Virus record (IMG/VR): IMGVR_UViG_3300045988_139196
From: a virus
Strand: one strand, 5' to 3'
Length of the DNA: 64,000 nucleotides
A model generated the notes under the pieces. That model did not search any database. It was not told the origin of the DNA and worked only from the letters and a program-made list of their open reading frames with translations. The position numbers were made by a program, and so were the translations under genes. This document shows positions 8,328-62,085 of this stretch, piece by piece. How positions within the stretch are numbered: position 1 is the stretch's first letter; each line of letters begins with the position of its first letter.

Positions 8328-8342
8328 GGAAGGTGAAAAATA

Positions 8343-8849: not shown

Positions 8850-8901
8850 TTTGTGTTTTTTGAATTTGCATAAAATTCCATTCAAAACTTTTTGAAAAGC
8901 A

Positions 8902-8930: not shown

Positions 8931-8962
8931 ATAAATGATGAAAGATTATCTCTATCATCTCT

Positions 8963-9087
8963 AATTTACGCTTCGCAATGTGCGACACAGAAACATTGTA
9001 GATACAATTACGTTTCACAATGTACGGCAAAGTAACATTGTAGTATTCAATTTACGCTTCGCAATGTGCGACACAGAAACATTGTAG
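8963..9087 (+). ncRNA. type III antitoxin RNA: about 2.9 tandem repeats, 43-nt period
   Basis: Repeat 1 (8963-9001) and repeat 3 (9049-9087) are identical: AATTTACGCTTCGCAATGTGCGACACAGAAACATTGTAG. Repeat 2 (9006-9043) is a diverged copy. Confidence 0.7.
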
Positions 9088-9089
9088 TG

Positions 9090-9132
9090 ATGCTGTCATT
9101 TTGGTTAATCTGAAGTGACAGCATATTTTTTT
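9090..9132 (+). terminator. rho-independent terminator
   Basis: Stem ATGCTGTCA (9090-9098) / TGACAGCAT (9116-9124), followed by ATTTTTTT. Confidence 0.65.
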
Positions 9133-9151
9133 GTATTAGGAGTGTCAAAAT

Positions 9152-10016: not shown

Positions 10017-10873
10017 TTTACATACTTATCCACAACTTCCTTGCCCACTTCCATTTTTAACATTTGCTCTTTTACGAGTCTGCTATCGCAGCCACTATAA
10101 TGTTGCTCAGTTATCCTCAAATCAGAATGTCCTAAGCTCTGACAGGCAATACGCAAATCTCTAATAACATCTTCACTGCCTTTTTGAATACAACTAATAT
10201 AAACGGAATGTGTCTGCCTAAAGCTGTGAGTGCTATATTTACCTTCTATGCCATGTTTGGCGGTTATATTCTTTAGAAATGTTGTAACGGAATTAAGTTC
10301 CATAGGAGCTATTCTGAGTAGTCTGCCGTTCCAATCATACTTCTCATTAGTATATATAATTTCTTCTTCTCCGTCCTCATTCAAGAAAATGTCCTCAATA
10401 TACTTCCTCTTACGTTCTCCACTCTGAAAAATATAATCTTCTGGGTCAAGTCCATAATACTTGATTATAAAACTCAGCATTTTCTTCACAGTATCACAAA
10501 GCCATGCCGTTCTCCATTTGTCCGTCTTGTCCTCTTGTAATGTCAAGTAATCTACAATTTTGCCGTTGTTATCGGTTAAATCCTTGACCCTCAAGGTCAT
10601 TATATCTCCGTAACGATAGCCTAAGTTACAAGCAAAAATTATAATATTTGCCTTGAAATATTTTTTGTTCTGAAACAAATCTTCCAAGAGAACATTCAGA
10701 TCATCGGGTCTGAACCAACTCGCAGACTTCTGCTTGCTTTCTTTATGCTTCGTAATAGCATTTCTGTGACCTTTTTTTCGTTTTGGCTGTTTTGTTATCT
10801 GTATTCCTGTCAGAAGTCTATCCGATAAATCGAAAATTTTGCAAGTTTGAGCTGTACTAATATTCATTTTCAT
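10013..10873 (-). CDS. tyrosine recombinase (phage integrase family)
   Basis: Catalytic signature: LGYRYGD (Arg I), HSFRQTH (His-x-x-Arg), LGHSDLRITEQHY (His/Tyr). Confidence 0.75.
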   Translation of the reverse strand: MKMNISTAQTCKIFDLSDRLLTGIQITKQPKRKKGHRNAITKHKESKQKSASWFRPDDLNVLLEDLFQNKKYFKANIIIFACNLGYRYGDIMTLRVKDLTDNNGKIVDYLTLQEDKTDKWRTAWLCDTVKKMLSFIIKYYGLDPEDYIFQSGERKRKYIEDIFLNEDGEEEIIYTNEKYDWNGRLLRIAPMELNSVTTFLKNITAKHGIEGKYSTHSFRQTHSVYISCIQKGSEDVIRDLRIACQSLGHSDLRITEQHYSGCDSRLVKEQMLKMEVGKEVVDKYVK

Positions 10874-36007: not shown

Positions 36008-37099
36008 TTGATTACGCCAAGGAAAAAAGTAAAAACCCCTGTAAGTACAAAAATATGTACAGAATGTGGCAAGGAAAAACCACTGTCACAATTTTATACT
36101 ACTAGAAATAGTAATATTTCTACTGATGGCAAAACGGTAAATATATGTAAGTCTTGTGTTAAAAAGGGTTCTTATAATTCTGATGGAAGCTTAAATATAG
36201 AAGCGTTCCAAAAGAAACTAATGTTAATGGATAAACCATACATACCAGAAGCTCTTGACTCTGCTATGAGTGAAGTAAGAAGATCATTAGAATTGGGCAA
36301 GGGTAGAACCGATATTATAGGCTGTTATTTTAAGAATGTGTCAACATTGCCACAGTATACGAAATTATCTTTTTTGGACTCTATGAATTTGTTTAATCAA
36401 GGCAAGTCTATTACTGAGGCAGTAACTACAACGGAAAAACGCAATATACTTCCTCGAAACGAAGAAGTATATGTAAATATGGTTGATGATTTTGTTGTTA
36501 CAAACGATATTACCGACTTATTTGGCGAGGGGTACACAAAATCACAGTACCGAAAAATGAAGAAAAAGTTTGATAAATTAAAAGAAAACTACTCAATTCA
36601 AACAAACTTACACGAGGAAGCTTTAGCAACCTATGTTCGTTTTAAGGTGAAAGAGGAAGAAGCCACAGCAGCAGGAGATGTTGGAAGTGCTGACAAATGG
36701 AATAGAGCTGCCCAAGATGCTGCTGATAAAGCAAAGTTGACTCCAAAACAATTAACGCAGGCTGATTTGCAAGGTGGAGTAACTTGCATTTCGGAAATAT
36801 CAAAAGCTTGTGAACAAGCGGTTGATATTGTTGAAATATTACCTAAGTTTAAGTACCAACCTAACGATGCTCCTGATTTTATAATATGGTGCTATATTAA
36901 CTATGCTAGAAAATTAAAAGGATTACCTAAGTGTGAGTATAAGGAAGTGTACCAATTTTATGACGACATGAAGAATGAGTACATTTCTCAGTATGGAGAT
37001 CCCTATGGTATTTTTACTGATGATACATCGGAAAAAAATAGGAGTTCTGTTGAAACGTTTATAAAACTGCCAAAAGATTATGAGAATGGTGACAAGTAA
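36008..37099 (+). CDS. Zn-ribbon protein, candidate small terminase subunit (by position)
   Basis: CTECGK..CKSC near the N-terminus. Lies immediately upstream of the large terminase and overlaps it. TTG start after GGAGGTGG. Confidence 0.35.
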   Translation: MITPRKKVKTPVSTKICTECGKEKPLSQFYTTRNSNISTDGKTVNICKSCVKKGSYNSDGSLNIEAFQKKLMLMDKPYIPEALDSAMSEVRRSLELGKGRTDIIGCYFKNVSTLPQYTKLSFLDSMNLFNQGKSITEAVTTTEKRNILPRNEEVYVNMVDDFVVTNDITDLFGEGYTKSQYRKMKKKFDKLKENYSIQTNLHEEALATYVRFKVKEEEATAAGDVGSADKWNRAAQDAADKAKLTPKQLTQADLQGGVTCISEISKACEQAVDIVEILPKFKYQPNDAPDFIIWCYINYARKLKGLPKCEYKEVYQFYDDMKNEYISQYGDPYGIFTDDTSEKNRSSVETFIKLPKDYENGDK

Positions 37100-40077
37100 T
37101 GAACTGGCAAAGAATAAAAGATTTTGAAAAAAATAGTGATAGTGTATTTGGCAAAAATCTACATAATTATTACACTTTTATAAGTTGGGCTAAGTGGTAT
37201 CCTGATTTATTACTCGACTTAATGAAACCTGAAACAGGTGGGTTAAATCTGCATTTAGATCAACGCATATTTTTGCGTTGTGACGTTAGATTTATGAGTA
37301 TGTATGGAACGTTTAGCCGTGGATATGGTAAATGCGTAAGTGGAGACACTATGTTATTTACCGATGAGGGTATTAAAGAGATTGGTGAATATTTTAATTA
37401 TCAAAATAACGATGTAGAAACCTATTATCCTACACACGCAAGGGTTGTAAATAGATATGGTAACTTAGAATGTTCAACTTTAGGTCTTTATAATGGTAGA
37501 AAAAATACTATAAAACTGACAGATAGTAAAGGTTATTCTATAACAGCCACCCCTAATCATAGAGTACTTGTTATGAAATCAAATGGAAGTGTAGATTTTG
37601 TAAAAACAGAAGATATAAAGATTGGCGATTATTTGGTTATTAATCGCAAAAATAATATCTGGGGTAATAATAATAAAGTTGAATATAAAAATGAAATTGG
37701 TGCATATGTAGAAAGCTTATCTCAACAATCACGTTCACATTTGAATATCAGAGCAATGCCAGATGGAATTACATCTCAATTAGCATTGATTTATGGATAT
37801 TTGATTGGAGACGGTTGTATGACTTCAAAAAATACAATTATCTTTACTAATATAGGTGATGAGATATTAGACAAGTTTAAAAATATTACGCAGAAATATT
37901 TTAACGTTGATGTCAAAAAAAGAAGTGACAATAATTACGACTATGAAATTAATGACACTTATTTAAGAAAATATCTCGAAATTATAGGATTTGATTATAG
38001 TAGATCATATGATAAAAAAGTACCTAAATCTATAATGGTAGCTAGTAAAGATGTTGTGTCAGCATTTTTACAAGGCTTATTTGACACAGATGGTACAGTA
38101 GACAATAAAATTATATCTTTAACAACAGTGTCGGAAAAGTTGGCAAATCAAGTTCATTTTTTATTACTGAATTTTGGTATTGTTTCTAAACTAAGTATTA
38201 AGAAAACAAAAAGTAAATTTGGTAAAGCATATCAAATTTGCATATCGGGGAACGATGTTGGTATTTTTAAATCTGAAATTGGTTTTGGTTTAAAGAAAAA
38301 GGCTGATAAACTTGATAAGTTGTGCAATAAAAAACATAACACAAATACAGACATAATACCATATCAGAACGAATTAGTTAAATCTGTACTTAATGAATTG
38401 AATTTACATTGGAGCGTTTCAAGGGAGTTCAATCATATTACAAGTGGAGAATGTGATTTAACGTATTCTAAATTAGATAGGTTAATTGCTCTATTGAACG
38501 AAAAGGGAGTTGCAAATAACACTTTAAACGAGTTGTATGCAACTCATTATTTTTATAGTCCTGTTGTTAATATTGAACATACTGTTTCAGATACATATGA
38601 TTTTCATTTACCTCAAACACATTCATTTGTGAGTAATGGAATTATAAGTCATAACACATTTGACGAGGTACTTGCTATGGTCGTAGTAGCAATGCTGTTC
38701 CCAAATATTGAATTGGCTCTTTCTGCGCAGACTAAAGAAAATGCGGCAGATTTATTGAAATCAAAGTGGAATGAAATTGTAAAATTATATCCACTTTTAA
38801 AGGACGAAATAAGAGAAGCTAGGTTTTCAAAGGGAAATGCTTATATTGAATTTAAAAATGATGCGACCATAGATGCTATTGCAAATGCTCAAAGCACAAA
38901 GGGTCAAAGACGTAGAAGGTTAAAAATAGAGGAATCCGCATTGCTAAATAATGCACTGTTTCAAGATGCTCTTGAGCCTGTAGTTGAAGTTCCAAGACTT
39001 ACGGTTGGCAGACTTGCGATAGTAGACCCAATGGAACTTAATCAGCAAATTCATTTTTTTACAACGGCAGGATTTAGGGGTTCAGACGAATATCAGCGTA
39101 GTATTTCAATGTTAGATGATATGGAAAATCTAAAGGGAAAAATAGTTTTGGGAAGCAACTGGCAACTTCCGTGTTGGTATGGTAGGGGAAGTAATAAAAG
39201 CAAAATACTTTCAAAGAAGAAAAATTCTTCTGTTGTAGCCTTCGCCCAGAACTATGAACAAGAATGGGTCGGCTGTGCTGACGGTGCGTTGGTTAATATT
39301 AATAAACTAATGAATTGCCGTACTCTAACGGAAGCGGTTTTACAAAATCCAGATCCAGAACAAGAATATTATATGGGTGTTGACGTGGCAAGAAGCCAAA
39401 AAACTTCTAATAACCAATCTTCTATTGCTGTAGTGCGTGTAATTAGAAGTAAGGATAAAGGGAGAATTATTTACATTGATGTGGTGAATATCATTAATAT
39501 TCCTAACGTACTTAATTTTAATGCCCAAGCTGCTATTATCAAAAAAGTTCAAAAACTTTATATGGCTAAAGTAGTTGTATTAGATGCTAATGGACTTGGT
39601 GTTGGATTGGCTGATGAACTTTTAAAAGACACGATTGACAATTCTACAGGTAAGGACTTGGGCTGTTGGGACACTATTAATGACGATAATGTTCCAGAAG
39701 TTCCTAACTCACCACAAATACTTTACAATATGAAAGCTCAGACTTGGCAAAATGAAATTGTAAGCACTTTTATAGATATGGTGGATAGTGGCAAACTTAG
39801 ATTGCTGGAAAAAAGACAAGATAATGATTTTACCGATAATGAATGGGATAGTTTTGACGAGAAAGTTAGACCTTTTATTGAGACAGATGCTTTTATTGAA
39901 GAAGCTGCGAATTTAAAGATGAAACATCTTAATAACGGCAACATTACTATTGAACAAGTTGTAAAAAAAGTAAATAAGGATAGAGTTTCGGCATTGATCT
40001 ATGTGTTGTGGTACGTTAATAAATATGCTCAAGACATAAATAACGATGAATACGATTATTGTTGTTTATTCAATTAA
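37099..40077 (+). CDS. terL: terminase large subunit, interrupted by an intein in the Walker A loop
   Basis: The exteins join as FSRGYGK|TFDEVLAMV, giving a P-loop GYGKT. Walker B-like LKIEES follows, then a nuclease-domain-sized C-terminus. Size without the intein is 551 aa. Confidence 0.75.
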   Translation: MNWQRIKDFEKNSDSVFGKNLHNYYTFISWAKWYPDLLLDLMKPETGGLNLHLDQRIFLRCDVRFMSMYGTFSRGYGKCVSGDTMLFTDEGIKEIGEYFNYQNNDVETYYPTHARVVNRYGNLECSTLGLYNGRKNTIKLTDSKGYSITATPNHRVLVMKSNGSVDFVKTEDIKIGDYLVINRKNNIWGNNNKVEYKNEIGAYVESLSQQSRSHLNIRAMPDGITSQLALIYGYLIGDGCMTSKNTIIFTNIGDEILDKFKNITQKYFNVDVKKRSDNNYDYEINDTYLRKYLEIIGFDYSRSYDKKVPKSIMVASKDVVSAFLQGLFDTDGTVDNKIISLTTVSEKLANQVHFLLLNFGIVSKLSIKKTKSKFGKAYQICISGNDVGIFKSEIGFGLKKKADKLDKLCNKKHNTNTDIIPYQNELVKSVLNELNLHWSVSREFNHITSGECDLTYSKLDRLIALLNEKGVANNTLNELYATHYFYSPVVNIEHTVSDTYDFHLPQTHSFVSNGIISHNTFDEVLAMVVVAMLFPNIELALSAQTKENAADLLKSKWNEIVKLYPLLKDEIREARFSKGNAYIEFKNDATIDAIANAQSTKGQRRRRLKIEESALLNNALFQDALEPVVEVPRLTVGRLAIVDPMELNQQIHFFTTAGFRGSDEYQRSISMLDDMENLKGKIVLGSNWQLPCWYGRGSNKSKILSKKKNSSVVAFAQNYEQEWVGCADGALVNINKLMNCRTLTEAVLQNPDPEQEYYMGVDVARSQKTSNNQSSIAVVRVIRSKDKGRIIYIDVVNIINIPNVLNFNAQAAIIKKVQKLYMAKVVVLDANGLGVGLADELLKDTIDNSTGKDLGCWDTINDDNVPEVPNSPQILYNMKAQTWQNEIVSTFIDMVDSGKLRLLEKRQDNDFTDNEWDSFDEKVRPFIETDAFIEEAANLKMKHLNNGNITIEQVVKKVNKDRVSALIYVLWYVNKYAQDINNDEYDYCCLFN
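37333..38655 (+). mobile_element. 441-aa intein with a LAGLIDADG homing endonuclease domain
   Basis: Starts CVSGDTMLFT (Cys1), block B is TPNHRVLV, LAGLIDADG motifs are LIYGYLIGDGCM and FLQGLFDTDGTV, and it ends FVSNGIISHN followed by the +1 Thr. Confidence 0.8.
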
Positions 40078-50740: not shown

Positions 50741-53700
50741 ATGGCAGATGATTTAAAAATACGAGTTCCTGTGGAACTTGACACAAGCAAAGTTAAAGAC
50801 GATATACCTAAATTAAATAATGTACTGGCAAATGACAATAAGGCTCATGCTAAAATCATTGGTGAGTTGGACTTGAATAAAACACAAAAGAAAATTCAAT
50901 CTCAACTTGCTACAATCAGCAAAAATCTAAAAATAGATATTGGTGGTTTAAATGTAACTTCTATTCAGAGTAGTATAAAGGCTGCTGAAAAACAGGTAAC
51001 TAGCTCTGTTAAAAATATAAAGCATGAGATACAGAATATTGACACAACTCTTGCAGAAACTTTTAAGGCAGGTTTTAATAAAGACGGACAGATAGATATT
51101 GTTAAAACTATTGAAAATGCAAGAAAAGTTTTGAGTCAGTTTGGCAATCCGACATTTTCATGGACTAAAGATAGTTCGGGTGAAGTCACTCAAATTACAG
51201 CAGAAATTACAAGTTTGACAGGTCAAGTCGAAAAACTGAAATATGCTCTGAACGAAACAAATGGGTCATTTGACTATCTATCGGGTAGTAGTTCTGAAAA
51301 GGGTATATTAAAGCTGATTGCGGATATTGATAAGGCTAAGTCGGATTATACTGCTAAACTTTCGGCATTTAAGTCAGCGAATAAAGGTATTGAATCGGGT
51401 ATAGGAAATGAAATTAATGCCGTTAATGCTGCTATTGACAATCTTGGCAAGGGTGGTTCTATTGCAGAGGTTGATAAACTATTCAATTCATTAAAAACTA
51501 CTGCAAGCAATATCAGGCAAAATTTAAAATCTCTTACAAGTTCTTTTAATGAAACTACAAATGCCGAAAACACTTTGGCTAAAATGCCTGCAACAATACA
51601 GGAAATATCAAATAGTTTTTCAAAACTTAAACAACAACCGTCAGAGGTTTCCGAATTAATTAGTAACTTAAATTCCCAATTAAATAAGGTCAATGAAACC
51701 GAAAGTCAATTTGGGCGAAACGAAAAATGGTCTGAAGAATATCGTGAGTTAGTTGTTTCGGTTAAAAAAGCAGAAACAGAAATAAAGAGCTTACAGTTAC
51801 TTGAAAGATCTGATAATTCTGAGGCACAGCAGCAAGCTCATTATTATAATAAGATGTTTGGTGAAATCAAACAGATTAATAAGCTTAAAAAGCAACAGGT
51901 CAATGCTGGCGAGCAAGAAAATGTTGAGCTAAAAAGACAGATTAAAAATCTTGAGAGTAGAGTTTCTTATGACGAGAAGCAGCTTAAAAAGAAGAAACTG
52001 ATTACAGAAGAACTTGAAAGACAAAAGAATGAATTAATAAACATTGGTAGGGAAGAACTTAGATTAGCCAATTCTCGTTCTGCTGATAAATCGTCAGCTA
52101 CATCTACTAAAACAGAAAATAATGTAGCTAGACTTACGCAAAATCTCACCACCTTAGAAACAAAATGGAAAGAGTCGCCTATTTTTAATGGAGAGTTTCA
52201 AGAAAAGTTTAATGAGTTAAAAACAAGTTTGTCTAATGTAGGTGGCGATCCTAAAGCATTAGACGAATATCGTATTAAACTCAATGAACTAACAAATGAG
52301 TTAAAGAGGGCAGATGTAGCTTATAAAGCTAGTTTTTCTAGCAATAAATCACAACAGAATATAGAAGCTACAAGGCAGAACATTAAAAAGTTAATATACA
52401 CAATTCAGACATGGCAACAGGCTAATACTAAAGCCATGGGCAAGAATACTTTTAATGGCGGTACATATCAGGTTGAAACTGATAATATGATAGCTTCACT
52501 CAAAAAGTTGCTTAATGCCAGTGATTTAACTGCGAGCGATTTGAAAGCCAATGTTGATAAAATCAATCGTAGTTTTAGGACAATGAGTTCTGAGGCACAG
52601 GCAGCAGGTGTGAACGGTTTAAGCTTTTTCGATAAGATTAAAGAGGACGCTTTAAAGTTCACAAGCTGGATGAGTTTGACTACTGTGATTTCAGGTATAT
52701 CCAGAGAAGCTGTTAAGTTCTATAATAATGTTGTAGATATTGATACAGCTATGACAGACTTGCGTAAGGTTACTGATAACACAAATCAGCAATATACCGA
52801 GTTCTTTGATAATATAGGTCAAAAGGCTAAAGATTTAAAGATTGATTTATCTGATCTTATTTCTCAAACCGCAGAATGGGGTAAACGTGGTTATAGCTTA
52901 GATGAAGCCGAAACACTTGCCACAAACTCAGGTATTTATTCAGTTGTTGGTGAAGTAGATAATGCAACAGCAGTACAAGACCTAACAACAGTTATGAAAA
53001 GCTATAACATGACAGTTGATGAGTCTATCAATATTGTCGATAAGTTTAACGCAATATCAAACAAGTATGCTGTTTCAGCGAGTGACATCGGTGATATGTT
53101 GTCAAGGTCAGTATCTTCACTGAGCGTAGCAGGAAATACACTAGATCAGGCAATAGCAATGGGTACAGCCATTACAGAAATAACTGGAGACGCAGCCGAA
53201 GCGGGAAATAGTTTGAAAGTCCTGTCAATGCGACTTCGTGGAGCAAAAACAGAACTTGAAGATGCAGGCGAGTCAACAGAGGGCATGGCGGTATCGACCT
53301 CAAAACTGAGGGAAGATATTAAAGCTCTTACTAACGTAAATGGCACAGGCGGTTTTGATATAATGAAGGACTCTCAGAATTTTAAGAGTACCTATGAAAT
53401 TATGAAAGGTATCGCCAATGTTTGGAACGATCTTACTGATACATCAAAAGCCGCTGTCATAGAGAAAATCGCAGGCAAGCAAAGAGGCAATACAATTACT
53501 GCATTGCTTACAAATATGAGTCAAGCGGATAAAATTGTTAATGACTCAATAGGCTCTGCTGGGTCTGCTATGTCAGAGTATGAAAAATACCTTGATTCCA
53601 TTCAAGGAAGAGTGCAAGGTTTTCAGACAAGTATTGAAAATTTGTCAGCTACTCTGATTAATGGTGATTTAGTTAAATTCGGTATCACCAGTGGAACACA

Positions 53701-53851
53701 AATTATTGATGTTCTTGATAATCTAATTAGTAAATTCGGTGTTTTAAAAACACTTATTCCTACCGTTATGGCAGGATTATCATTCAAAAACGTAGGTAAA
53801 CAATTATTAAAGATGCCAACTTATGCACAGCCACAAACTATATGTGCATAG
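50741..53851 (+). CDS. tail tape measure protein, 5' portion (the ORF terminates by reading into a group I intron core)
   Basis: Long coiled-coil N-terminus. TP901-family tape-measure core (DIDTAMTDLRKVTDNT..ISNKYAVSASDIGDMLSRS..AGNSLKVLSMRLRG). The last 9 codons plus the TAG overlap the P1 hairpin. Confidence 0.75.
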   Translation: MADDLKIRVPVELDTSKVKDDIPKLNNVLANDNKAHAKIIGELDLNKTQKKIQSQLATISKNLKIDIGGLNVTSIQSSIKAAEKQVTSSVKNIKHEIQNIDTTLAETFKAGFNKDGQIDIVKTIENARKVLSQFGNPTFSWTKDSSGEVTQITAEITSLTGQVEKLKYALNETNGSFDYLSGSSSEKGILKLIADIDKAKSDYTAKLSAFKSANKGIESGIGNEINAVNAAIDNLGKGGSIAEVDKLFNSLKTTASNIRQNLKSLTSSFNETTNAENTLAKMPATIQEISNSFSKLKQQPSEVSELISNLNSQLNKVNETESQFGRNEKWSEEYRELVVSVKKAETEIKSLQLLERSDNSEAQQQAHYYNKMFGEIKQINKLKKQQVNAGEQENVELKRQIKNLESRVSYDEKQLKKKKLITEELERQKNELINIGREELRLANSRSADKSSATSTKTENNVARLTQNLTTLETKWKESPIFNGEFQEKFNELKTSLSNVGGDPKALDEYRIKLNELTNELKRADVAYKASFSSNKSQQNIEATRQNIKKLIYTIQTWQQANTKAMGKNTFNGGTYQVETDNMIASLKKLLNASDLTASDLKANVDKINRSFRTMSSEAQAAGVNGLSFFDKIKEDALKFTSWMSLTTVISGISREAVKFYNNVVDIDTAMTDLRKVTDNTNQQYTEFFDNIGQKAKDLKIDLSDLISQTAEWGKRGYSLDEAETLATNSGIYSVVGEVDNATAVQDLTTVMKSYNMTVDESINIVDKFNAISNKYAVSASDIGDMLSRSVSSLSVAGNTLDQAIAMGTAITEITGDAAEAGNSLKVLSMRLRGAKTELEDAGESTEGMAVSTSKLREDIKALTNVNGTGGFDIMKDSQNFKSTYEIMKGIANVWNDLTDTSKAAVIEKIAGKQRGNTITALLTNMSQADKIVNDSIGSAGSAMSEYEKYLDSIQGRVQGFQTSIENLSATLINGDLVKFGITSGTQIIDVLDNLISKFGVLKTLIPTVMAGLSFKNVGKQLLKMPTYAQPQTICA

Positions 53852-54153
53852 GTCACACACGTTTTAAAATAAGGTTGCCAAATTGCTGAGAACGGCTAAA
53901 GCTTTGCGACTACTTATAGCAATGGCACTATAAGAGTGAGGAAACTCGGAAACAATAGCAAAGATAACATATGCTGAGATAAAAGTCTATTATACTATTA
54001 TAATAGGTGCTAAGTGTTATTAAAAATGTCAGGTCAGCAGCCAACCCCTATCGGGAGATACGGACTAGGTTCAGAGAGTAGACGGTAACTATCTTGTGGT
54101 GAGATAAAGGTGTACTCCAACTATAGGTAACACCTATAGCGTTTCTAAAAATG
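53822..54153 (+). ncRNA. group I intron catalytic core (P1-P9)
   Basis: P element AAATTGCTGAGAACGG (53880-53895). P4 is TGCTGA 53884-53889 / TCAGCA 54034-54039. P3 is GGTTGCC 53873-53879 / GGTAACT 54084-54090. R element GGTTCAGAGAGTAGACGG (54068-54085). P7 is GAGTA 54076-54080 / TACTC 54113-54117. P8 is ATCT/AGAT. P9 hairpin is 54121-54139. P1 is 53819-53829 / 53843-53853, with a single U-G pair at 53821/53851. Confidence 0.7.
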
Positions 54154-54338
54154 AATTATCCCTCATTTATTTAGTTTTGCCCTTTAACAGTAAGGGTGGG
54201 ATAAAACTGTTATTAATCATTTTGCATAGTGTTTTATTTTACACTATTCATTTGTGTATGTCAACACTAAATTTGTTCGTTAATAAAAATTTTACATTTA
54301 TATTTACATAATGTTTGTTAATGCAACCATTATATGGC

Positions 54339-54367
54339 TTGACATTAGTTCCCAATATGGGTATACT
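54339..54367 (+). promoter_or_regulatory. promoter of the MazEF-like operon, followed by operator-like repeats
   Basis: TTGACA (54339-54344), 17-nt spacer, TATACT (54362-54367). Then the palindrome TATGCGTTAAACGCATA and ACGCATAATTTATTA twice (54378-54435). Confidence 0.55.
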
Positions 54368-54534
54368 GATAATAGAAATATGCGTTAAACGCATAATTTA
54401 TTATTTACACGCATAATTTATTAGTTATACGCATATTTTAGGTGCTTGCCCCTATAATATAATAGAGGTGATACCGCATGGAAGAAACTAACAACAAAAA
54501 GAATGTACGTAAAAAGTAGCAGGAGTTGATAGAT

Positions 54535-54726
54535 ATGGCAGTTATGAGTAAACCTGTAAATCTTGCCTTCGTTGTTAGAGAAGATAAAGCGGACGAATTT
54601 ATTAATTCCAAGTCCTCCGCAGCAGTTATTTCAAAAATAAAAAAACAGGCAAGAGAGATGATGAAACATTCGACTTTTAACGGACAGCCATGGGGAGAAG
54701 ATATTAGGAAATCACTTGAAGGCTAA
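54535..54726 (+). CDS. hypothetical small protein
   Basis: Start at the ATG after GCAGGAG. Confidence 0.4.
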   Translation: MAVMSKPVNLAFVVREDKADEFINSKSSAAVISKIKKQAREMMKHSTFNGQPWGEDIRKSLEG

Positions 54727-54802
54727 ACTATAAAAGTTTCATTTTTAATCAACAACCATACACAAAGGTATAAAATTATTTCAAAATTTAGAGGTGAGGT
54801 TT

Positions 54803-54985
54803 ATGGCTAAAACAATAAATGTACAGAATACTAAGATGTCAGTTGAGGAATTTAATCAATTTATTACAGCCAATTTAGATTTTATACTGAGTAATGTACC
54901 GCACAATCCGACAATAAACAAAGATGATGAGTGGAATGATAAAATCTACGATAATTATGCAAAAATCGATGACGATAGGAAGTGA
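54803..54985 (+). CDS. candidate antitoxin of the downstream MazF-like toxin
   Basis: 60 aa with an acidic C-terminus (KDDEWNDKIYDNYAKIDDDRK). Ends 5 nt before the toxin start. RBS AGAGGTGAGG. Confidence 0.4.
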   Translation: MAKTINVQNTKMSVEEFNQFITANLDFILSNVPHNPTINKDDEWNDKIYDNYAKIDDDRK

Positions 54986-54990
54986 CATAA

Positions 54991-55380
54991 ATGGCGAAGA
55001 AACAATGGGAGTTGTGGTACGCTAATTTTCCCTTTGAAGATAAAAATATCTCAAAGGATAGACCTGTTATTATATTGAGTGTGCAACCTTTGTGTGTACT
55101 GTCAATTAAAGTGACAAGTCATGAAGTGAGAGAAGCCGATAAATATGATGTACCTATTACTCATTGGCAAGAGGCAGGATTAAAGCATGAGTCTGTAGCA
55201 CGAATTTCCAAAACCGTATCGTTGGATAACAGTAAGTTCCGAAGAAAAATTGGTGAACTACATAAAGATGATATTGATATTATTCTTGAAAATTATGTTC
55301 AGTTTTTGCTTGAGTCAGATCAGGTTAAAATGGAAAACGGCAAGGGTGACAACGAGTTACTGAACGCAGCAAATGAATAG
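54991..55380 (+). CDS. MazF/PemK-like toxin
   Basis: WELWYANFPFED..SKDRPVIILS......IKVTSH..........ESVARISKTVSLD fits the PemK-like SH3 barrel pattern. Confidence 0.55.
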   Translation: MAKKQWELWYANFPFEDKNISKDRPVIILSVQPLCVLSIKVTSHEVREADKYDVPITHWQEAGLKHESVARISKTVSLDNSKFRRKIGELHKDDIDIILENYVQFLLESDQVKMENGKGDNELLNAANE

Positions 55381-55389
55381 ACATAGAAT

Positions 55390-55421
55390 AAGACCCTAGA
55401 TTTTCTCTAGGGTCTTTTGTT
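55390..55421 (+). terminator. rho-independent terminator
   Basis: Stem AAGACCCTAG/CTAGGGTCTT followed by TTTGTT. Confidence 0.7.
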
Positions 55422-55470
55422 ATTGACATTTTCACTAATTTTTAGCTTGAAACTTTGTACATATTGTATA

Positions 55471-55499
55471 TTGATTTTTTGTCGTTAATGTCATATAAT
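55471..55499 (+). promoter_or_regulatory. promoter of type III TA locus C
   Basis: TTGATT (55471-55476), 17-nt spacer, TATAAT (55494-55499). Confidence 0.55.
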
Positions 55500-55531
55500 A
55501 TAGTAAAGAAATGATTCAAGAGATTGAACAC

Positions 55532-55632
55532 TTCAAATGTTTGTCGCTGCTAGATATGCGACTAATAAATAGTCTAGTTCAAATGTTTGTCGCTGCTAGA
55601 TATGCGACTAATAAATAGTCTAGTTCAAATAT
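55532..55632 (+). ncRNA. type III antitoxin RNA: about 2.2 tandem repeats, 46-nt period
   Basis: TTCAAATGTTTGTCGCTGCTAGATATGCGACTAATAAATAGTCTAG occurs at 55532 and 55578, with a partial third copy from 55624. Confidence 0.7.
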
Positions 55633-55662
55633 AGTCTCGCCTAGAGCGGGACTATTTGTTTT
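55633..55662 (+). terminator. rho-independent terminator
   Basis: Stem AGTCTCGC/GCGGGACT followed by ATTTGTTTT. Confidence 0.6.
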
Positions 55663-55677
55663 GAGGGGCATAAATTA

Positions 55678-56157
55678 ATGGAAGTTGGACATTTTTATTT
55701 TTTGGACAATCAATATTATCAAGATTTCAATGACGATAAGCTTATGAGCAATCATGAAACTGTTGATGGTGAAGTACATGGTCGCCCTTGCTATTGTTGT
55801 ATAAACACATCTGATAACGGTATTTATTGGGCTATTCCAATATCTTCGCAAGTTGAGAAATATAGAAAAATATATGATAAGAAGATTGACAAGAATGGAA
55901 AATGCGATACCATTGATTTTGGAAAAGTGCTTGGTGCAGAGAGAGCGTTTTTAATTCAAAATATGTGTCCTGTTACCGATAAATATATAAAGAATGAGTA
56001 TCAACATTTAGGTGTACCAGTAGCCATTGATTATATGACATATAAAAGAATAGTGTCTAAGGCTACAAAGGTGTCTGCTTTGGTACATAATAATAATTCG
56101 CATTTGATATTTCCAGATGTGTTGAAAATTGAAGAAGTGCTAAAGTCAAAAAAATAA
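55678..56157 (+). CDS. type III TA toxin, ToxN/AbiQ/CptN-like endoribonuclease (third paralogue)
   Basis: FYFLDNQYYQDFNDDKL..GRPCYCCI..GIYWAIPISSQVEKYRKIY..RAFLIQNMCPVTDKYIK. Closest by eye to the 8343 protein. Confidence 0.7.
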   Translation: MEVGHFYFLDNQYYQDFNDDKLMSNHETVDGEVHGRPCYCCINTSDNGIYWAIPISSQVEKYRKIYDKKIDKNGKCDTIDFGKVLGAERAFLIQNMCPVTDKYIKNEYQHLGVPVAIDYMTYKRIVSKATKVSALVHNNNSHLIFPDVLKIEEVLKSKK

Positions 56158-56176
56158 ATAGAATACAATGCAAATA

Positions 56177-56204
56177 AAGCTCCGATATTCTCGGAGCTTT
56201 TGTT
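56177..56204 (+). terminator. rho-independent terminator
   Basis: Stem AAGCTCCGA/TCGGAGCTT followed by TTGTT. Confidence 0.65.
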
Positions 56205-56276
56205 ATACATGAACACACATCGTTTACTTTCGTCCATTTGTACACTTGTGTACACTCATACACTCATATTCATTAT

Positions 56277-56702
56277 CTATTCTCTCAAATTAACATTTAC
56301 GTTAGTCCAATCCTTGCCGTCACGTTCCATAGTGACAGTATAGTACAATCTGCCCTTAACACCAAAACTATTTTCAGCGTCCACATAAGATGATACGGTG
56401 TAGCTATCATTATGATGTGTAATAAAGCTTTTATCATACATTGGATAATCTGCCGTGGCAGGGGCTTTTAACTGTTTGTTTACATAGAATTTAGCTGCTG
56501 TGTAAGCTTCTTGGCTGTAGTCTTTTTCGTAGTGTGAAATGTCGGATATTTTATCGACCAATCCTATAATAAAGAAAAATAATAATATAATGGCAAATAT
56601 AATTTTGCCAATAGAATAATGAACTTGTTCGGTAGCCTCGTTGTTGTTAGACATGGTATTTTCATTAGTTACATTGTCTGTTTTTCCTTGATTATTCGTC
56701 AT
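56277..56702 (-). CDS. single-pass membrane protein with an extracytoplasmic domain (exclusion-type moron?)
   Basis: TM segment IIFAIILLFFFIIGLV. The C-terminal AKFYVNKQLKAPATADYP...SYVDAENSFGVKGRLYYTV pattern is common in small Firmicutes envelope proteins. Confidence 0.55.
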   Translation of the reverse strand: MTNNQGKTDNVTNENTMSNNNEATEQVHYSIGKIIFAIILLFFFIIGLVDKISDISHYEKDYSQEAYTAAKFYVNKQLKAPATADYPMYDKSFITHHNDSYTVSSYVDAENSFGVKGRLYYTVTMERDGKDWTNVNVNLRE

Positions 56703-56889
56703 AACTATTCTCCTTTAAATTTTATATCAAAACTATAAATGAATAACTGTTAAGGTCTTTAAAACAGTTGAAAATGAGAGTAGTGGCAAGACTAATATTA
56801 GCGTATTAGGCAAGACTATAACGCAACTTTCAGATTTAAAGAACTTATTCAACAATAAATCAAATATAACCTTAATCCCTGCAAGTGAA

Positions 56890-59800
56890 GTGGCGAACGT
56901 TCGTCAGTTCAACAATCTTTTAGCACAGGGAAAATCTGTAGCTGAAGCTGAGTCAATAGCCTTGAAAGGCTGTTCTGAAACAACTCTCAATGTTGCCAGA
57001 AGTGCTAATGGTGCAGCAGTATCAGAAGAAATACTGTCTGCTTCTTTAAAGGGTGTTGCAACTTCCTCTAAGCTTGCTGCCGCTGGCATGAAAGTATTAT
57101 CAACCGTTGGTAATATGGCGGTAGGTGTTATCGCAAGTATAATCCTTGATGGTAGTATAACACTTTTTGATAATATTGTCAATGGTGCAGATAATGCAAA
57201 AGAAAGTTTAGCTCAGTTCACAAGTAGTTTCTCTGACTCTATTGACAAATTAGACGAAGAAAACAAGTCAGTAAATGAATTAGTAAATCGTTATGTAACT
57301 TTGGTTGCGACAACAGATGACTTGTCAACTGTTAAGGACGATTTGAATACTATTCAGGACAACTTAATTGATAAGTACGGTAATGAAGCTAAGAGCCTTG
57401 ACTTGCTTAATGACAAAATGTCTGAGAATATTAAGAAAATCAAAGAGTGGAAAAAAGAAAAGGCTGAGAGTGAACTTTATCAAGAGTCGGATATTACTGA
57501 TCCTGATGATAGTGATAGAAAGCTGAGTGTTAAAGAAGCCTATGATTTAGCACAAAAGAAATTAAAAGAGGGAAGCTCTTTTAACAAGGGTCTTTTTACT
57601 ACTGATTATGGTGGCAAAGGGCAAGCCTATGTATCAGACGGTCTATTCAGTGGCTATAATTCTAATGCTGATATCAACAAGGTCGGCTCTCGTGGTGATG
57701 GTGATTGGTACAGTTACAAGAATGACATTGAACCAATTCTCAAAAAGTATAATAACGTTGGTATAAGCACTAATGCTTATAGTAATTTACTTTTCGCAGG
57801 TACAATGCAAGAACGTATTGATACCATGCAAAAGGTTTATGATGAATTATCCGAGAAATGGGCAAACATTTCAAAAGACGATAATCGTAACAAGTGGTTG
57901 GCTGACTTGCAAAAAGAAATTGCCACTACAACAGAGGAATATGATAAACTTTCCAATGCCGTTGATAAATACAACGAAATTCAGAAAACACTTGAAAACT
58001 ATAACACAAGTGAAGAATTTAGTAAAGCATTTGATGAAGCTCAGAAAGCTACTGAAAGTTATAGTCATGCTGTAGAAACCAAAAACATTGATGATGTTGA
58101 TAGGCTTTATGATTTAACTCAGAAATACAAAGATAAGTTAATCAACTTGGCTAATGGTGACGAGGATTTAATTGACTATGTTAATACTTTCTTTGAAACT
58201 TTGCCTGCAAAATTAACAACAGGTACTTTTGATATTTCTGAGTGGACGGACGATATTGACGAAGTTCAGAATAAGGCAAAATCACTGAAAGATACCTTAA
58301 CGAGCCTGCAAGACGGAAGTATTTCGGATAGTGATTTAGTTGAACTGTTTAAATCATATCCTGACTTAGCTAAGTTCTCAGGCAACACGGAAAAGCTGAC
58401 AGAAGAAGTTAAGAAACTGATAAGACAAAACCCTAAAGAGCTGATAAATAGACTCAAAGAGTTATCAGACACATTGCCAAATGGCAACGATAAGGCTAAT
58501 GTGGAAGGTCTTATTTCAAGCCTTGAAAAGCTTGGAGAGGTAGCTTCTTCTATTTCCGAAGTTAAGCTGTCTGTAGACGATATTGAGAAAATTTATGAGG
58601 AAACGTTTGATGATCTTATAGATAAAGCCGAGGACGAGAAAGATGTTCTTGAAGAACAAAAGAATATTCTTACAGAACAAAAAACTCAACTTGACAATAT
58701 TATTTCTCAGTACGAAACCGTTGCAAACACAGTGGAGTCTTATATTGACGAGCAGAAATCAGCTATTGAGGACAGATACAATGCTGAAATTGATGCCATT
58801 AAATCCGTTAATGAAGAAAAACAAGATACTATTGACTTACAGGAAAAGTTAAATAATCTTGAAAATGCTAAAAAGAAAAAGGTAAATGTTTATTCTGAAG
58901 CTAGTGGTTGGCACTTAGAAACCAATACCGAGGAAGTAAACAAGGCACAGCAGGAATATGAACAGGCGAGTGCTGATAAACGTGTATCTGACCTTGAAAA
59001 ACAGCGTGACAAGGAAACTTCACTGTGGGATAAGTATAAACAACAGTGGCAAGACCTTATCAATAGCTCTACCAATACAGAAAATGAACAGCTTGCCAAA
59101 GATATTTTAGGCGTTAATTGGACGGACAAAATAGCACAGCAAGACACGAATATTCTTAATGACTTTGCGAGCAAATATCAATCTTATCGTTCTCAGCTAT
59201 CAGATCAGGTTGAAAAGGAAATTGAGAGCGTTGATAAAGAGATAACGGCTAAAAGCAAAGAAATTGAGGCATACAAGAAAGAAAAAGAAGCTTTATCAAA
59301 CTATGTTACAGATATTACGAATAAGAACAAAGACTACATAAAACAGTTGACAAACGTTTCTGAAAAAGAAATGCAGACTATGGAAGGTAGGACTAAGTTC
59401 TTAGAGGATTGTAAAAAACGTGCTAGGGAAGCTCTTGACTATTCTGATATTTCTGTTGAGGGTGCTAAATCGAATGGTTTGTATCTTGTTCAATATGACG
59501 GTGAAACTGTTGGAACAGGGCTTGATGAAGCACAAGCAGAACAGTTAAAATCTGAACTGTACGGCAAAATGGTTTCATCAGAACTCTTGGCTAACCCTAT
59601 GCTTGGTAAGAACAAGGGTGCATTAACAGCTATTCTTAACGCTTTAAAGAGTAAGTTTAACATTATTAAGCCATATCGCTCAGGTGGTATTGATGATTAT
59701 ACAGGGCTTGCTCAACTTCATGGAAAGCCAAATGCAGTTGAAACTATCTTCAATTCAGAGCAAGGCAGAAAGCTATACAACCTTGTGGCTAATACGGATA

Positions 59801-60027
59801 ACCTTGTCAATTATATTGGAGATAAGATTTATAACGGCATAACAGATTTGGTAAGGACAAAAATGTCCTCACCAAACAATATTCAAAATAGAAATGACAC
59901 AAACAATAAGACTATCGTATTCCAGATTGATACTGTCAATACAACAGACGGCACAACATTCTTAGAGCAGATGAACGCTTATCTGCAACAGGCTGATTTG
60001 GATAGAATAGTTGGTAAAAATTATTAA
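56890..60027 (+). CDS. tape-measure-like coiled-coil protein, likely the 3' portion of the split tape measure; 5' boundary unresolved
   Basis: No ATG or RBS. The frame is open from 56743. N-terminus has a hydrophobic Gly/Ala segment (AAGMKVLSTVGNMAVGVIASIILDG), followed by about 900 aa of coiled coil. Confidence 0.55.
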   Translation: MANVRQFNNLLAQGKSVAEAESIALKGCSETTLNVARSANGAAVSEEILSASLKGVATSSKLAAAGMKVLSTVGNMAVGVIASIILDGSITLFDNIVNGADNAKESLAQFTSSFSDSIDKLDEENKSVNELVNRYVTLVATTDDLSTVKDDLNTIQDNLIDKYGNEAKSLDLLNDKMSENIKKIKEWKKEKAESELYQESDITDPDDSDRKLSVKEAYDLAQKKLKEGSSFNKGLFTTDYGGKGQAYVSDGLFSGYNSNADINKVGSRGDGDWYSYKNDIEPILKKYNNVGISTNAYSNLLFAGTMQERIDTMQKVYDELSEKWANISKDDNRNKWLADLQKEIATTTEEYDKLSNAVDKYNEIQKTLENYNTSEEFSKAFDEAQKATESYSHAVETKNIDDVDRLYDLTQKYKDKLINLANGDEDLIDYVNTFFETLPAKLTTGTFDISEWTDDIDEVQNKAKSLKDTLTSLQDGSISDSDLVELFKSYPDLAKFSGNTEKLTEEVKKLIRQNPKELINRLKELSDTLPNGNDKANVEGLISSLEKLGEVASSISEVKLSVDDIEKIYEETFDDLIDKAEDEKDVLEEQKNILTEQKTQLDNIISQYETVANTVESYIDEQKSAIEDRYNAEIDAIKSVNEEKQDTIDLQEKLNNLENAKKKKVNVYSEASGWHLETNTEEVNKAQQEYEQASADKRVSDLEKQRDKETSLWDKYKQQWQDLINSSTNTENEQLAKDILGVNWTDKIAQQDTNILNDFASKYQSYRSQLSDQVEKEIESVDKEITAKSKEIEAYKKEKEALSNYVTDITNKNKDYIKQLTNVSEKEMQTMEGRTKFLEDCKKRAREALDYSDISVEGAKSNGLYLVQYDGETVGTGLDEAQAEQLKSELYGKMVSSELLANPMLGKNKGALTAILNALKSKFNIIKPYRSGGIDDYTGLAQLHGKPNAVETIFNSEQGRKLYNLVANTDNLVNYIGDKIYNGITDLVRTKMSSPNNIQNRNDTNNKTIVFQIDTVNTTDGTTFLEQMNAYLQQADLDRIVGKNY

Positions 60028-60167: not shown

Positions 60168-60818
60168 ATGAGTAATTATAAACCACAAGAATTTGCTGAA
60201 ATGATAGGTGTATCTGTAAAAACCTTGCAACGTTGGGACAAAGAAGGCAAACTTAAAGCATATCGCACTCCAACAGATAGGCGTTATTATACTCACAAAC
60301 AATATGTCGATTATATGGGTGATGGTAATAGTAAACACGGCAAAACGGTCATATATACAAGAGTATCTACTTCTAATCAAAAAGATGATTTACAAAATCA
60401 AGTCGAATTTTTAAAACAATATGCTAATGCAAAAGGGATTATTGTTGATGAAATCTTTGAAGATATAGGTAGTGGGTTAAATTACAATCGCAAGAAATGG
60501 AATAAACTTATTGAAGATTGTATGCTTGGATTAATAAAGACTGTTATTGTTGCTCATAAAGACAGATTTGTACGTTTTGGATATGAATGGTTTGAACGTT
60601 TTCTTAAATCTGATGGTGTTGAGATTATTGTTGTTAATAATGAAAAGGCATCACCAGAGCAAGAATTAGTTAATGATTTAATATCCATTATACACGTTTT
60701 TAGCTGTCGTATATATGGTTTAAAAAAGTATAAAAAGCAAATCGAAGGAGATGAAGAAATTGCTAAAGAGTTACAAGACAGAAATAAACCCAACGTTCGA
60801 ACAGAAACAAACAATTAA
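60168..60818 (+). CDS. tnpA: IS607-family serine recombinase transposase (MerR-like HTH plus resolvase domain)
   Basis: N-terminal HTH EFAEMIGVSVKTLQRWDKEGKLKAYRTPTDRRYY, then VIYTRVSTSNQKDDLQNQ containing the catalytic Ser. Confidence 0.8.
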   Translation: MSNYKPQEFAEMIGVSVKTLQRWDKEGKLKAYRTPTDRRYYTHKQYVDYMGDGNSKHGKTVIYTRVSTSNQKDDLQNQVEFLKQYANAKGIIVDEIFEDIGSGLNYNRKKWNKLIEDCMLGLIKTVIVAHKDRFVRFGYEWFERFLKSDGVEIIVVNNEKASPEQELVNDLISIIHVFSCRIYGLKKYKKQIEGDEEIAKELQDRNKPNVRTETNN

Positions 60819-61935
60819 TCGCACTATTGGAGTATGCAGATACGTTTACAACTTTTATCTTGCTCACAATCAAGAAATATATAAAACTGAAAAACGTTTT
60901 GTATCTGGAATGGACTTTTCTAAATGGATTAACAATGAATTCATTCTCAACAATCCTGACTTTCATTGGATAAAAGAGGTTAGCAGTAAGTCTGTTAAAC
61001 AAAGCATTATGAACGCTGAGAGAGCTTTCAAGAACTTTTTTAAAGGAAAATCAAGATTTCCAAAGTTCAAGAAGAAAGCAAAATCAGATGTAAAAATGTA
61101 TTTTGTAAAAACAAATGCTAAAACAATTATTCAATGTGGAAGACATAGAATTAAGATTCCTACCCTTGGTTGGGTAAGATTAAAAGAAAAAGGATATATT
61201 CCTACAAACCCCAAAACACATATTATCAAAAGCGGAGCAGTGTCTTGCAAAGCAGGAAGATACTATGTGTCGGTTTTAGTCGAAGAGCAGGAACATCAAA
61301 AGCCTGTTTTAAATGACTTTGGAATAGGAATAGACTTAGGTCTTAAAGATTTTGCCGTTTGTTCAAGCGGAAAAGTTTACAAGAATGACAACAAGAGTTC
61401 TAAAATAAGGAAACTTGAAAAGAAACTTAGACGTGAGCAACGTAGCTTATCGAGGAAATACGAAAGCTATAAGAAACTTAATAAAAATATGAAAGGAGTA
61501 GCTACTCGACAAAATATCCAAAAGCAAAAGTTAAAAGTACAGAAAATTCATCAAAGACTTGACAATATAAGAACAGATTATATCAATAAGGTAATATCCG
61601 AATTGGTGAAAACCAAGCCAATGTGGATTACTATTGAGGATTTAAATATATCAGGTATGATGAAGAATAGACATCTCTCCAAATCAATCGCACAGCAAAA
61701 GTTCTTTGAATTTAGGACAAAGCTACTTGCTAAGTGTAACGAATATGGGATTGAGTTAAGAGTCGTTGATAGATTTTATCCTTCTAGCAAAACTTGTCAT
61801 AATTGTGGTTGTATCAAATCTGATTTGAAATTATCGGATAGAACATACCATTGTTGTGAATGTGGTTATACAGAGGATAGAGATTATAATGCAAGTCTTA
61901 ATTTGCGAGATTGTCAAACCTACAAGGTAGCATAA
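60751..61935 (+). CDS. tnpB: TnpB RNA-guided nuclease (OrfB_IS605 family), catalytic residues intact
   Basis: N-terminus SYKTEINPTFEQKQTINRTIGVCRYVYN. RuvC I is IGIDLGLKDFAV, RuvC II is ITIEDLNISGM, Zn finger is CHNCGC..CCECG, RuvC III is DRDYNASLNL. Confidence 0.8.
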   Translation: MKKLLKSYKTEINPTFEQKQTINRTIGVCRYVYNFYLAHNQEIYKTEKRFVSGMDFSKWINNEFILNNPDFHWIKEVSSKSVKQSIMNAERAFKNFFKGKSRFPKFKKKAKSDVKMYFVKTNAKTIIQCGRHRIKIPTLGWVRLKEKGYIPTNPKTHIIKSGAVSCKAGRYYVSVLVEEQEHQKPVLNDFGIGIDLGLKDFAVCSSGKVYKNDNKSSKIRKLEKKLRREQRSLSRKYESYKKLNKNMKGVATRQNIQKQKLKVQKIHQRLDNIRTDYINKVISELVKTKPMWITIEDLNISGMMKNRHLSKSIAQQKFFEFRTKLLAKCNEYGIELRVVDRFYPSSKTCHNCGCIKSDLKLSDRTYHCCECGYTEDRDYNASLNLRDCQTYKVA

Positions 61936-62085
61936 ACAAGCTAACGTAGGTATGTACCGTAGGCTATACGGGAATTTACGCCTGTGGACTATACAAGAAC
62001 TTGTGAGTAGTCTTATGACAAAAGCATATAGGTTGAAGCAGGAATTTTCTCGATATGGATATATTTGTCCATATTTTGAGTAGCA
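61880..62085 (+). ncRNA. predicted omega-RNA (reRNA) scaffold of TnpB; boundaries approximate
   Basis: Inferred from the known TnpB architecture (scaffold overlaps the tnpB 3' end and the IS right end). A hairpin ATATGGA/TCCATAT lies at 62054-62076. Confidence 0.3.

Follow-up and report, generated by a model that had tools for sequence, protein, structure and literature searches.

A probable group I intron with a variable toxin-antitoxin cargo in the tape-measure gene of an SPbeta-like gut phage

The window analysed here, a stretch of 64,000 nucleotides of viral DNA (IMG/VR record IMGVR_UViG_3300045988_139196), carries a tail tape-measure gene whose reading frame is interrupted by what is likely a true group I intron, spliced now or until recently. 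The predicted intron (53822-56754, plus strand, 2,933 nt) separates an exon 1 of 1027 codons (50741-53821), which ends in ...KQLLKMPT, from an exon 2 of 1090 codons and a stop (56755-60027), which begins with VFKTVENESSGK. Its ribozyme, from P1 to P9.1, takes up the first ~380 nt only, and another 2.55 kb separate it from the 3' splice site, which is located beyond a cargo island inserted between the core and this site. Tape-measure genes with group I introns are as such already known; what is new here is the cargo and the architecture of the 3' end, and the most unusual property is that the toxin-antitoxin cargo varies among relatives.

The case for a ribozyme is primarily comparative. In a scan of a 351-nt segment, the Rfam model Intron_gpI (RF00028, gathering score 50 bits) aligns over its full length (1-253) with window 53816-54139 at 29.9 bits and an E value of 5.6e-6, and no match is returned for the 64-kb window or for a 3.4-kb sub-window, even at E <= 10. 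Since the narrow scan recovers the match, these misses are filter losses and not absence. A copy of the intron in a more distant phage (L026), whose tape measure is 52% identical to that of the window, lies at the same codon, is 73% identical in sequence and reaches 59.9 bits, above the gathering score. The covariance-model check that was suggested along with the original prediction therefore gave a divided answer, positive for L026 and in the narrow scan, but below the threshold for the window copy itself. A blastn search of the core against GenBank phages gave no match.

A structure of 83 pairs was drawn by hand, comprising P1, P3, P4, P5, a five-helix P5 extension, P6/P6a, the pseudoknotted P7, P8 and P9, and its pairs were counted in seven sequences from three lineages, namely the window, L026 and L200, the last of which came from a genome scan. 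An alignment of 45 sequences from loci that share the P4/Q pattern is too heterogeneous for pair counting, and the three-lineage alignment was used instead. With the restriction that only three lineages are compared and that the structure derives in part from the same sequences, 93.6% of the cells are paired, vs 30-44% when the partners are slid by 1-3 columns, and 18 pairs have changed on both sides, vs 0-5 in the slid controls. None of 500 shuffles reaches the observed pairing value, every core helix is 92-100% paired across lineages, and even among close relatives 53916/53931 switches in step from A-U to G-C. We regard this comparative evidence, that is, the score of the homologue, the paired cells and the two-sided changes, as decisive, and on these grounds judge the ribozyme to be real.

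All parts of a full group I core, with P1, P3-P9, the P3/P7 pseudoknot and a P9.1 extension, can be assigned by prediction to window 53819-54202 on the plus strand. Within the catalytic core as aligned with Rfam and supported by the counts for each helix (53873-54139), P3 (53873-79 / 54084-90), P4 (53884-89 / 54034-39), P7 (54076-80 / 54113-17), which is pseudoknotted with P3, P8 (54091-95 / 54101-05) and P9 (54121-28 / 54132-39) can be read from the sequence. P5 with its extension P5a-e (five helices, 53894-54030) and P6/P6a with a GNRA loop (54041-54069) follow from the drawn structure and its pair counts. The spacer from P7 to P3' measures only 3 nt, and the P5 extension is large. P9.1 (54158-54202) combines an outer helix (54158-62/54198-202) with an inner hairpin (54179-84/54192-97), is present in the minimum-free-energy fold and is kept in L026; in L200 its outer helix changes, as judged by eye, from AUCCC/GGGAU to CACGUC/GACGUG. 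The original prediction held that the group I helices are readable in the sequence, and every helix it named is present, some at slightly different coordinates; its interval of 53819-54153 captures the 5' module, but stops short of P9.1 and of the remaining 2.5 kb. On the minus strand, a sigma-70-like promoter (54236-54264, TTGACA-17-TAAAAT, 11/12 consensus positions) is directed leftwards into the ribozyme and is divergent from the cargo promoter described below; a transcript from it would run antisense to the core of the intron and to the last part of exon 1.

The 5' splice site is predicted to lie in P1, an 11-bp hairpin (53819-53829 / 53843-53853) read from the sequence, in which U53821·G53851 is the only wobble pair. 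Given that 53819-53821 is the ACT codon for the T of ...KMPT, the site after U53821 falls on a codon boundary, as had been proposed from the window alone. The U·G pair is unchanged in 7/7 sequences, while three other P1 pairs have changed on both sides, and it stands at a phase-0 codon boundary in all three lineages. The stop codon UAG at 53849-51 within P1 closes an open reading frame (ORF) of 1,036 residues, whose tail YAQPQTICA* is translated P1; the earlier view of this tail as read-through into P1 is borne out by the translation, and a matching 3' splice site restores the tape-measure frame. Exon 1 matches PF10145 (PhageMin_Tail) at residues 695-912.

At the other end, three divergent classes can be told apart by the sequence that precedes exon 2, and they converge at ...(A/U)AG|GUCUUUAAA. 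An in-frame TAG directly precedes the GUC codon in classes B and C; in the class of the window the frame opens four codons earlier, and what follows in this frame, which is open from 56743, is typical of a tape measure and includes a hydrophobic segment. Protein conservation (VFK...NIS.LGK) sets in at GUC codon 1, and the first ATG, GTG or TTG is found 23-45 codons into exon 2 across alleles; in the window, start-type codons are absent before codon 46 (GTG 56890). Because the classes converge here, TAG codons stand upstream, conservation starts at GUC and start codons come late, we place the beginning of exon 2 at G56755 in phase 0, so that the predicted junction reads ...KQLLKMPT|VFKTVENESSGK (...KMPT|VFKTVENE...) and the last intron base is G56754. 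A terminal intron G and a phase-0 exon 2 are common to the window, allele classes B and C, L200 and a lineage with a different ribozyme (L114, weak full-length Intron_gpI match of 24.9 bits), and exon 2 begins with GU in five alleles or lineages. The junctions of L200 (NTPV|VFQTIDAG) and L114 (NMPS|VLTFF) both follow this pattern, with a G at the end of the intron and GU at the start of exon 2. Moreover, an intron-less tape measure encoded by a contiguous gene (P0013, 32% identity) aligns across the junction with a single gap of one residue. In several distant fragments of tape-measure genes, too, the frame stops at this ..NMP/..MPT site and has a tail that resembles translated P1, for example NMPSYICCV* and NTPFYVPLPCCA*. 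As L114 and these fragments share the position, the insertion site appears from sequence comparison to be an old and widely used intron position. No intron-less allele was found among the close relatives, a search of IMG/VR with the DNA pattern of the spliced junction gave one unrelated match, and in L198/L026 the contig ends or diverges before an exon 2, and with it a 3' splice site, can be identified.

The cargo island has its own sigma-70-type promoter on the plus strand (54339-54367, TTGACA-17-TATACT, 11/12 consensus matches), which belongs to the 5' block common to all relatives, and just downstream of it a tandem repeat finder detects 2.8 copies of an operator-like 20-nt direct repeat (54384-54440, plus strand). 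The first gene after the promoter is a 66-aa ORF (fam1, 54526-54726, plus strand) without a family match that occurs in most cargo classes. It is followed by a putative type II toxin-antitoxin pair (54794-55380, plus strand), composed of a 63-aa ORF (54794-54985), which has no family match and is a candidate antitoxin by position only, and a MazF/PemK toxin (54991-55380; PF02452, 47.6 bits with a cut-off of 23.1, E 2.2e-12; PHROG 1936, MazF-like). A bidirectional intrinsic terminator is predicted after mazF (55390-55416, plus strand). The next unit, also on the plus strand, starts with a CptI-type antitoxin RNA (55532-55655), made up of 2.2 copies of a 46-nt repeat that are 100% identical (55532-55630) and a terminator (55631-55655), and continues with a CptN type III toxin (55678-56157; NCBIfam NF047359 CptIN, 185 bits with a cut-off of 90; PDB 4RMO CptN, E 1.7e-22). 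Repeats, terminator and toxin together make up what is, by these matches, a complete type III toxin-antitoxin system. Between cptN and a convergent gene lies a terminator hairpin (56176-56200), which is called on the minus strand and has the same stem on the plus strand. The convergent gene (fam0, 56277-56702, minus strand) encodes a 141-aa protein with an N-terminal hydrophobic segment, which may be membrane-anchored and matches PHROG 13160, a family with no assigned function; it keeps its position in every cargo variant, and its start codon is 52 nt from the 3' splice site. Homing endonuclease families (LAGLIDADG, GIY-YIG, HNH, His-Cys box) are absent from the five cargo ORFs of the window and from the other cargo families of relatives, PADLOC matches none of the cargo ORFs, and the window intron contains no transposase.

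IMG/VR holds ~48 close relatives, which match the window at 96-100% identity over the first 540 nt around the site, and an insert separates residue 1027 from the exon 2 frame in 44/44 relatives for which both exons could be placed. Together with the window these amount to 45 intron copies, which comprise 42 distinct sequences and 11 cargo arrangements with lengths of 2.26-5.48 kb. The 5' module with its promoter and the minus-strand gene are constant, and the ribozyme is 96-100% identical; the middle genes, that is, the MazF pair, CptIN and four families without a Pfam match, are shuffled, and two relatives (L003 and L033) have a TnpB gene in the cargo. The intron, which has no homing endonuclease, appears to be fixed in the phage lineage. 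The cargo appears to recombine freely, and on a tentative reading the intron would be a place within an essential gene where accessory genes are tolerated. In L200, the intron exists in a short version (2538-3526 of the reverse complement, ~990 nt), with a minus-strand 120-aa zinc-ribbon-like ORF as its only cargo and an in-frame AUG that ends exactly at the 3' splice site (UUUAUG|GUG). In some relatives exon 1 is interrupted by additional inserts, after residue 822 (~300 or ~1,540 nt; L017 6286-6585, L023 4463-6000) and at residue 913 (~467 or ~1,790 nt; L027 6559-7025, L030 6559-8348), both of which the window lacks; the residue-913 insert gives a weak full-length Intron_gpI match (23.5 bits, E 0.0016).

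Nine relatives contain an IS607-type element of ~2.55 kb in J4/5 of the ribozyme itself: eight metagenomic sequences and the genome of the cultured Hominimerdicola aceti Sanger_31 (L004, L021, L037, L041, L047-L050 and L199). In L004 it spans 6968-9513, at the equivalent of window 53888/53889 (GCTGG|...|AACGG), and it encodes a MerR-HTH/resolvase TnpA together with TnpB. Prophages of this kind persist, with an intron that is probably disabled unless the element is itself removed. In the window (60751-62044), 46 nt separate the stop of a TnpB gene from an Rfam RAGATH-18 motif that follows it, and in L004 (9379-9440) the motif is 74 nt short of the right end of the IS607-type element. This suggests that RAGATH-18 provides these TnpB proteins with the scaffold of their guide (omega) RNA.

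We propose that the intron and its cargo are used in the two phases of the phage life cycle as follows. In a lysogen, the host RNA polymerase would transcribe the cargo from its own promoter and stop at the terminators of the island. During lytic growth, a YonO-like phage polymerase would read the late operon through these terminators, guanosine would attack after U53821 in P1, and the 3' splice site after G56754 would be brought to the core by nearby contacts. Three such contacts are tentatively put forward: CAAAACUA could pair with the loop of P9.1, a hairpin could span the junction, and exon 1 could form a helix with exon 2. Ligation of the exons in phase 0 would yield a tape measure of 2,117 residues, and unspliced RNA would give the 1,036-residue protein with its P1-encoded tail. 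An 891-aa ORF of the window (28159-30834) matches PF05183 and is read as a YonO-like single-chain RNA polymerase, and the structural genes of relatives match the SPbeta-type families YonB/YomW/YomU/YomN. YonO of SPbeta transcribes all late genes as one operon and is without the flap domain that is used in hairpin-dependent termination (PMC5467207). Because a YonO-like ORF occurs among SPbeta-type structural genes and SPbeta YonO has these properties, we infer a late crossing of the terminators.

How the exons are held is less evident. Only 2-3 exon nucleotides are paired in P1, where 4-6 are usual in group I introns, and there is no complementarity between 53830-53850 (L1 and guide strand) and 56755-56762 that could form a P10, an element that some group I introns lack; the L1 loop itself varies freely. 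With so short a P1 pairing and no P10, another element must keep the exons in position together with the remote 3' splice site, and we describe three tentative contacts, as leads rather than findings. The first involves CAAAACUA (56728-56735, plus strand), the only block common to the three divergent classes of 3' ends, which is complementary to UAGUUUUG (54172-54179) in the internal loop of P9.1; about 0.7 perfect 8-bp complements are expected by chance, which makes this candidate long-range pairing weak alone, and the counterpart in L200, AAAUUUUG / CAAAAUAU, shows one compensatory pair by eye. The second is a hairpin (56744-56770, plus strand) between intron 56744-51 and exon 2 56763-70, with the 3' splice site in its loop AAG|GUCUUUAA. 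Its stem differs by allele class (AACUGUU/AACAGUU, GAUUG/CAAUC, GGUU/AACC), and it is the minimum-free-energy fold in 3/5 lineages and thermodynamically weak (z -1.3 to +1.2). A small hairpin is also found around the homologous site of the intron-less P0013 gene.

The third candidate is an exon-exon helix, which may take the place of P10 and in which UUAAAGA of exon 1 (53807-53813, plus strand) would pair with UCUUUAA of exon 2 (56756-56762); the counterpart is GAACAC/GUGUUC in L200 and 11 bp long in L114. The positional p values of this helix, which was noticed post hoc, are 0.0065 (window), 0.014 (L200) and 0.0006 (L114). It was not found in a further lineage (L115), and as blind prediction of exon 2 from complementarity to exon 1 failed or was uninformative in L115, L254 and L275, the helix is not general. 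The heptamer AACUGUU occurs both right after P9.1 (54203-54211) and in the hairpin at the 3' splice site, where it makes up the 5' strand (56745-56751), and nearly matches the ligated junction CAACU|GU, so that the exon 2 segment AACAGUU(G) could pair with three alternative partners in this allele class only.

Several of the observations above weigh against a working intron, among them the chance expectation for the long-range pairing, the weak 3' hairpin, and the post hoc origin and uneven occurrence of the exon-exon helix. In addition, the case for splicing is built entirely from sequence, the score of the window copy falls short of the Rfam gathering value, and the covariation is drawn from three lineages only. 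At least two plus-strand terminators (55390-55416 and 55631-55655), the hairpin at 56176-56200 and the convergent gene precede the 3' splice site, such that co-linear transcription would need a terminator-insensitive polymerase. A fossil intron would account for part of this: with a non-functional ribozyme, exon 1 with its YAQPQTICA tail and an exon 2 product, for example from GTG 56890, would assemble non-covalently. The low score, the very short exon pairing without P10, the terminators within the intron, the persistence of relatives with an IS607 element in the ribozyme, including the genome of a cultured isolate, and the annotation of such tape measures as separate genes by gene callers are all in keeping with this alternative. 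We nevertheless hold it to be unlikely, since the helices stay paired through 18 two-sided changes in lineages whose tape measures are just 44-52% identical, and every lineage examined retains the U·G pair, a G at the end of the intron and a junction in phase 0. Furthermore, the exon 2 protein is conserved from codon 1, with a stop upstream in two allele classes and no start for 23-45 codons, and the junction matches the continuous homologue P0013.

Trans-splicing, with exon 1 and ribozyme on one RNA and the 3' segment and exon 2 on another, the two being associated by long-range pairings, would likewise explain the strong plus-strand terminators, the candidate pairings between exon 1 and exon 2 and between the P9.1 loop and CAAAACUA, which could be intermolecular, and weak plus-strand promoter-like sites at 56554-56675. 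We consider it very unlikely. Three sites near exon 2 match at only 9/12 positions, no better than shuffled sequence, and none is a convincing promoter; the segment just upstream of exon 2 is occupied by the convergent gene; and trans-splicing group I introns are, to our knowledge, restricted to organelles. The window also encodes a YonO-type polymerase, which in SPbeta makes one long late transcript (PMC5467207). Least probable of all is a degenerate IStron, a chimera of group I intron and IS200/IS605/IS607 element that has lost its transposase and gained other genes: the layout is the same, with a 5' ribozyme and then genes before the 3' splice site (PMC4227781), and TnpB occurs in the cargo of L003 and L033 and IS607-type tnpA-tnpB in other relatives, but these IS copies were inserted secondarily and at various places, in one case into the ribozyme, the window copy is without transposase, its 3 nt between P7 and P3' and large P5 extension differ from the P7.1/P7.2 and P9.0-9.2 of IStrons (PMC4227781), and a single orthologous site in tape-measure genes is used instead of scattered sites.

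As for the carrier, members of the intron family were located by the genome scan in Hominimerdicola aceti (the cultured candidate for a host), a Ruminococcus metagenome-assembled genome (MAG) and an Oscillospiraceae MAG. The phage is taken to be an SPbeta-like temperate phage of gut Oscillospiraceae. A Fusobacterium host, which had come into consideration through a Fusobacteriales-1 RNA match, is ruled out by the same scan. This RNA motif, with three hairpin repeats, is found in the window at 8964-9085 (88.7 bits) and in L115 at 10142-10261 (92.1 bits), one of the two occurrences lying within the intron cargo of a distant relative. The window encodes another selfish element, an intein with a LAGLIDADG homing endonuclease (PF14890, PF14528) in a 992-aa ORF at 37099-40077.

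For annotation, the preferred reading of a spliced intron means that the tape measure would be one protein of 2,117 residues, and not a 1,036-residue protein and an orphan ORF. The same unrecognised split in many metagenomic phages and at least one isolate would make inferences on tail length and host range wrong. The isolate is the Thomasclavelia phage TR-TP1 (L287, PQ571309.1 23364-31193), whose tape measure is annotated as separate coding sequences split by two 'HNH endonuclease' genes, and whose tape-measure homology begins upstream of one annotated start; these splits are probably unannotated introns. Phage accessory and defence genes are usually located between genes. If true, an interchangeable toxin-antitoxin island in the intron of an essential structural gene would represent a new kind of hotspot, and a rare example of a bacterial group I intron with a payload that is of use to the carrier and not to the mobility of the intron. 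It would also pose a question of RNA mechanics, namely by what means a ribozyme can locate a 3' splice site at a distance of 2.5-5 kb, past terminators and a convergent gene. We speculate, in a joint claim that is possible but on balance doubtful, that the intron offers a protected slot in an essential late gene for exchangeable defence and addiction cassettes, clade-wide in SPbeta-like gut phages. In the lysogen, expression of the cassettes would be driven by their own promoter, and in lytic growth, with the phage polymerase reading through, they would be removed at the RNA level. In the same claim, joining without P10 would proceed via the exon 1-exon 2 helix stacked on the 3' splice-site hairpin, in a geometry that acts over 2.5-5 kb and resembles the anticodon arm hosting bacterial tRNA introns.

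The original prediction took group I introns in tape-measure genes to be uncommon; introns of this group named TMP-IVS1, -IVS2 and -IVS3 have already been described at three sites of such genes in Bacillus cereus-group prophages (Tourasse & Kolsto 2008, PMC2504315). The window intron is similar in that it is a group I interruption of a prophage tape-measure gene, in that several insertion sites exist in one gene (in relatives of the window also at residues 822 and 913), in that different introns occupy the same site in different phages, and in that several TMP-IVS introns have no complete homing endonuclease gene (PMC2504315). The TMP-IVS ribozymes are of types IA1/IA2, in contrast to that of the window, which has a large P5 extension and no P7.1/P7.2; the parts of the report used here (PMC2504315) mention no multi-gene cargo, as opposed to the 2.5 kb of toxin-antitoxin genes on both strands, with their own transcription and 11 arrangements, in the present case. 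The host clade differs too, being here gut Oscillospiraceae with an SPbeta-like phage. In the literature, which we covered incompletely, we found no bacterial or phage group I intron with a multi-gene, bidirectional, self-promoted and strain-variable toxin-antitoxin cargo, nor any relevant work on introns that carry toxin-antitoxin or defence genes.

The T4 nrdD (sunY) intron, reportedly treated by Michel et al. in 1992, is said to have a 5' catalytic core and >1 kb of coding sequence before a remote 3' junction, and the sequences adjoining this junction are reported to pair back to the core. Its payload is reportedly a single endonuclease-type ORF on the same strand, whereas the window intron carries several operons, served by a promoter and terminators of their own, along with a convergent gene, and back-pairing is here tentative. 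IStrons, in which a group I intron is fused to an IS200/IS605 or IS607 element (PMC4227781; bioRxiv 10.1101/2023.11.20.567912), share with the window intron the 5' ribozyme module, the protein genes in the 3' part and the principle that splicing renders the insertion harmless, and in some relatives TnpB/IS607 elements are physically associated with the intron. Unlike IStrons, the window intron carries defence- or addiction-type genes and no integral transposase, has a differing ribozyme and resides at one orthologous site and not in dispersed copies. Finally, the type III module agrees with the CptIN family in its toxin match of 185 bits and in the tandem repeats and terminator directly upstream (NF047359, PDB 4RMO), and differs from known CptIN systems in having 2.2 repeats only and in its location within the intron of a phage structural gene.

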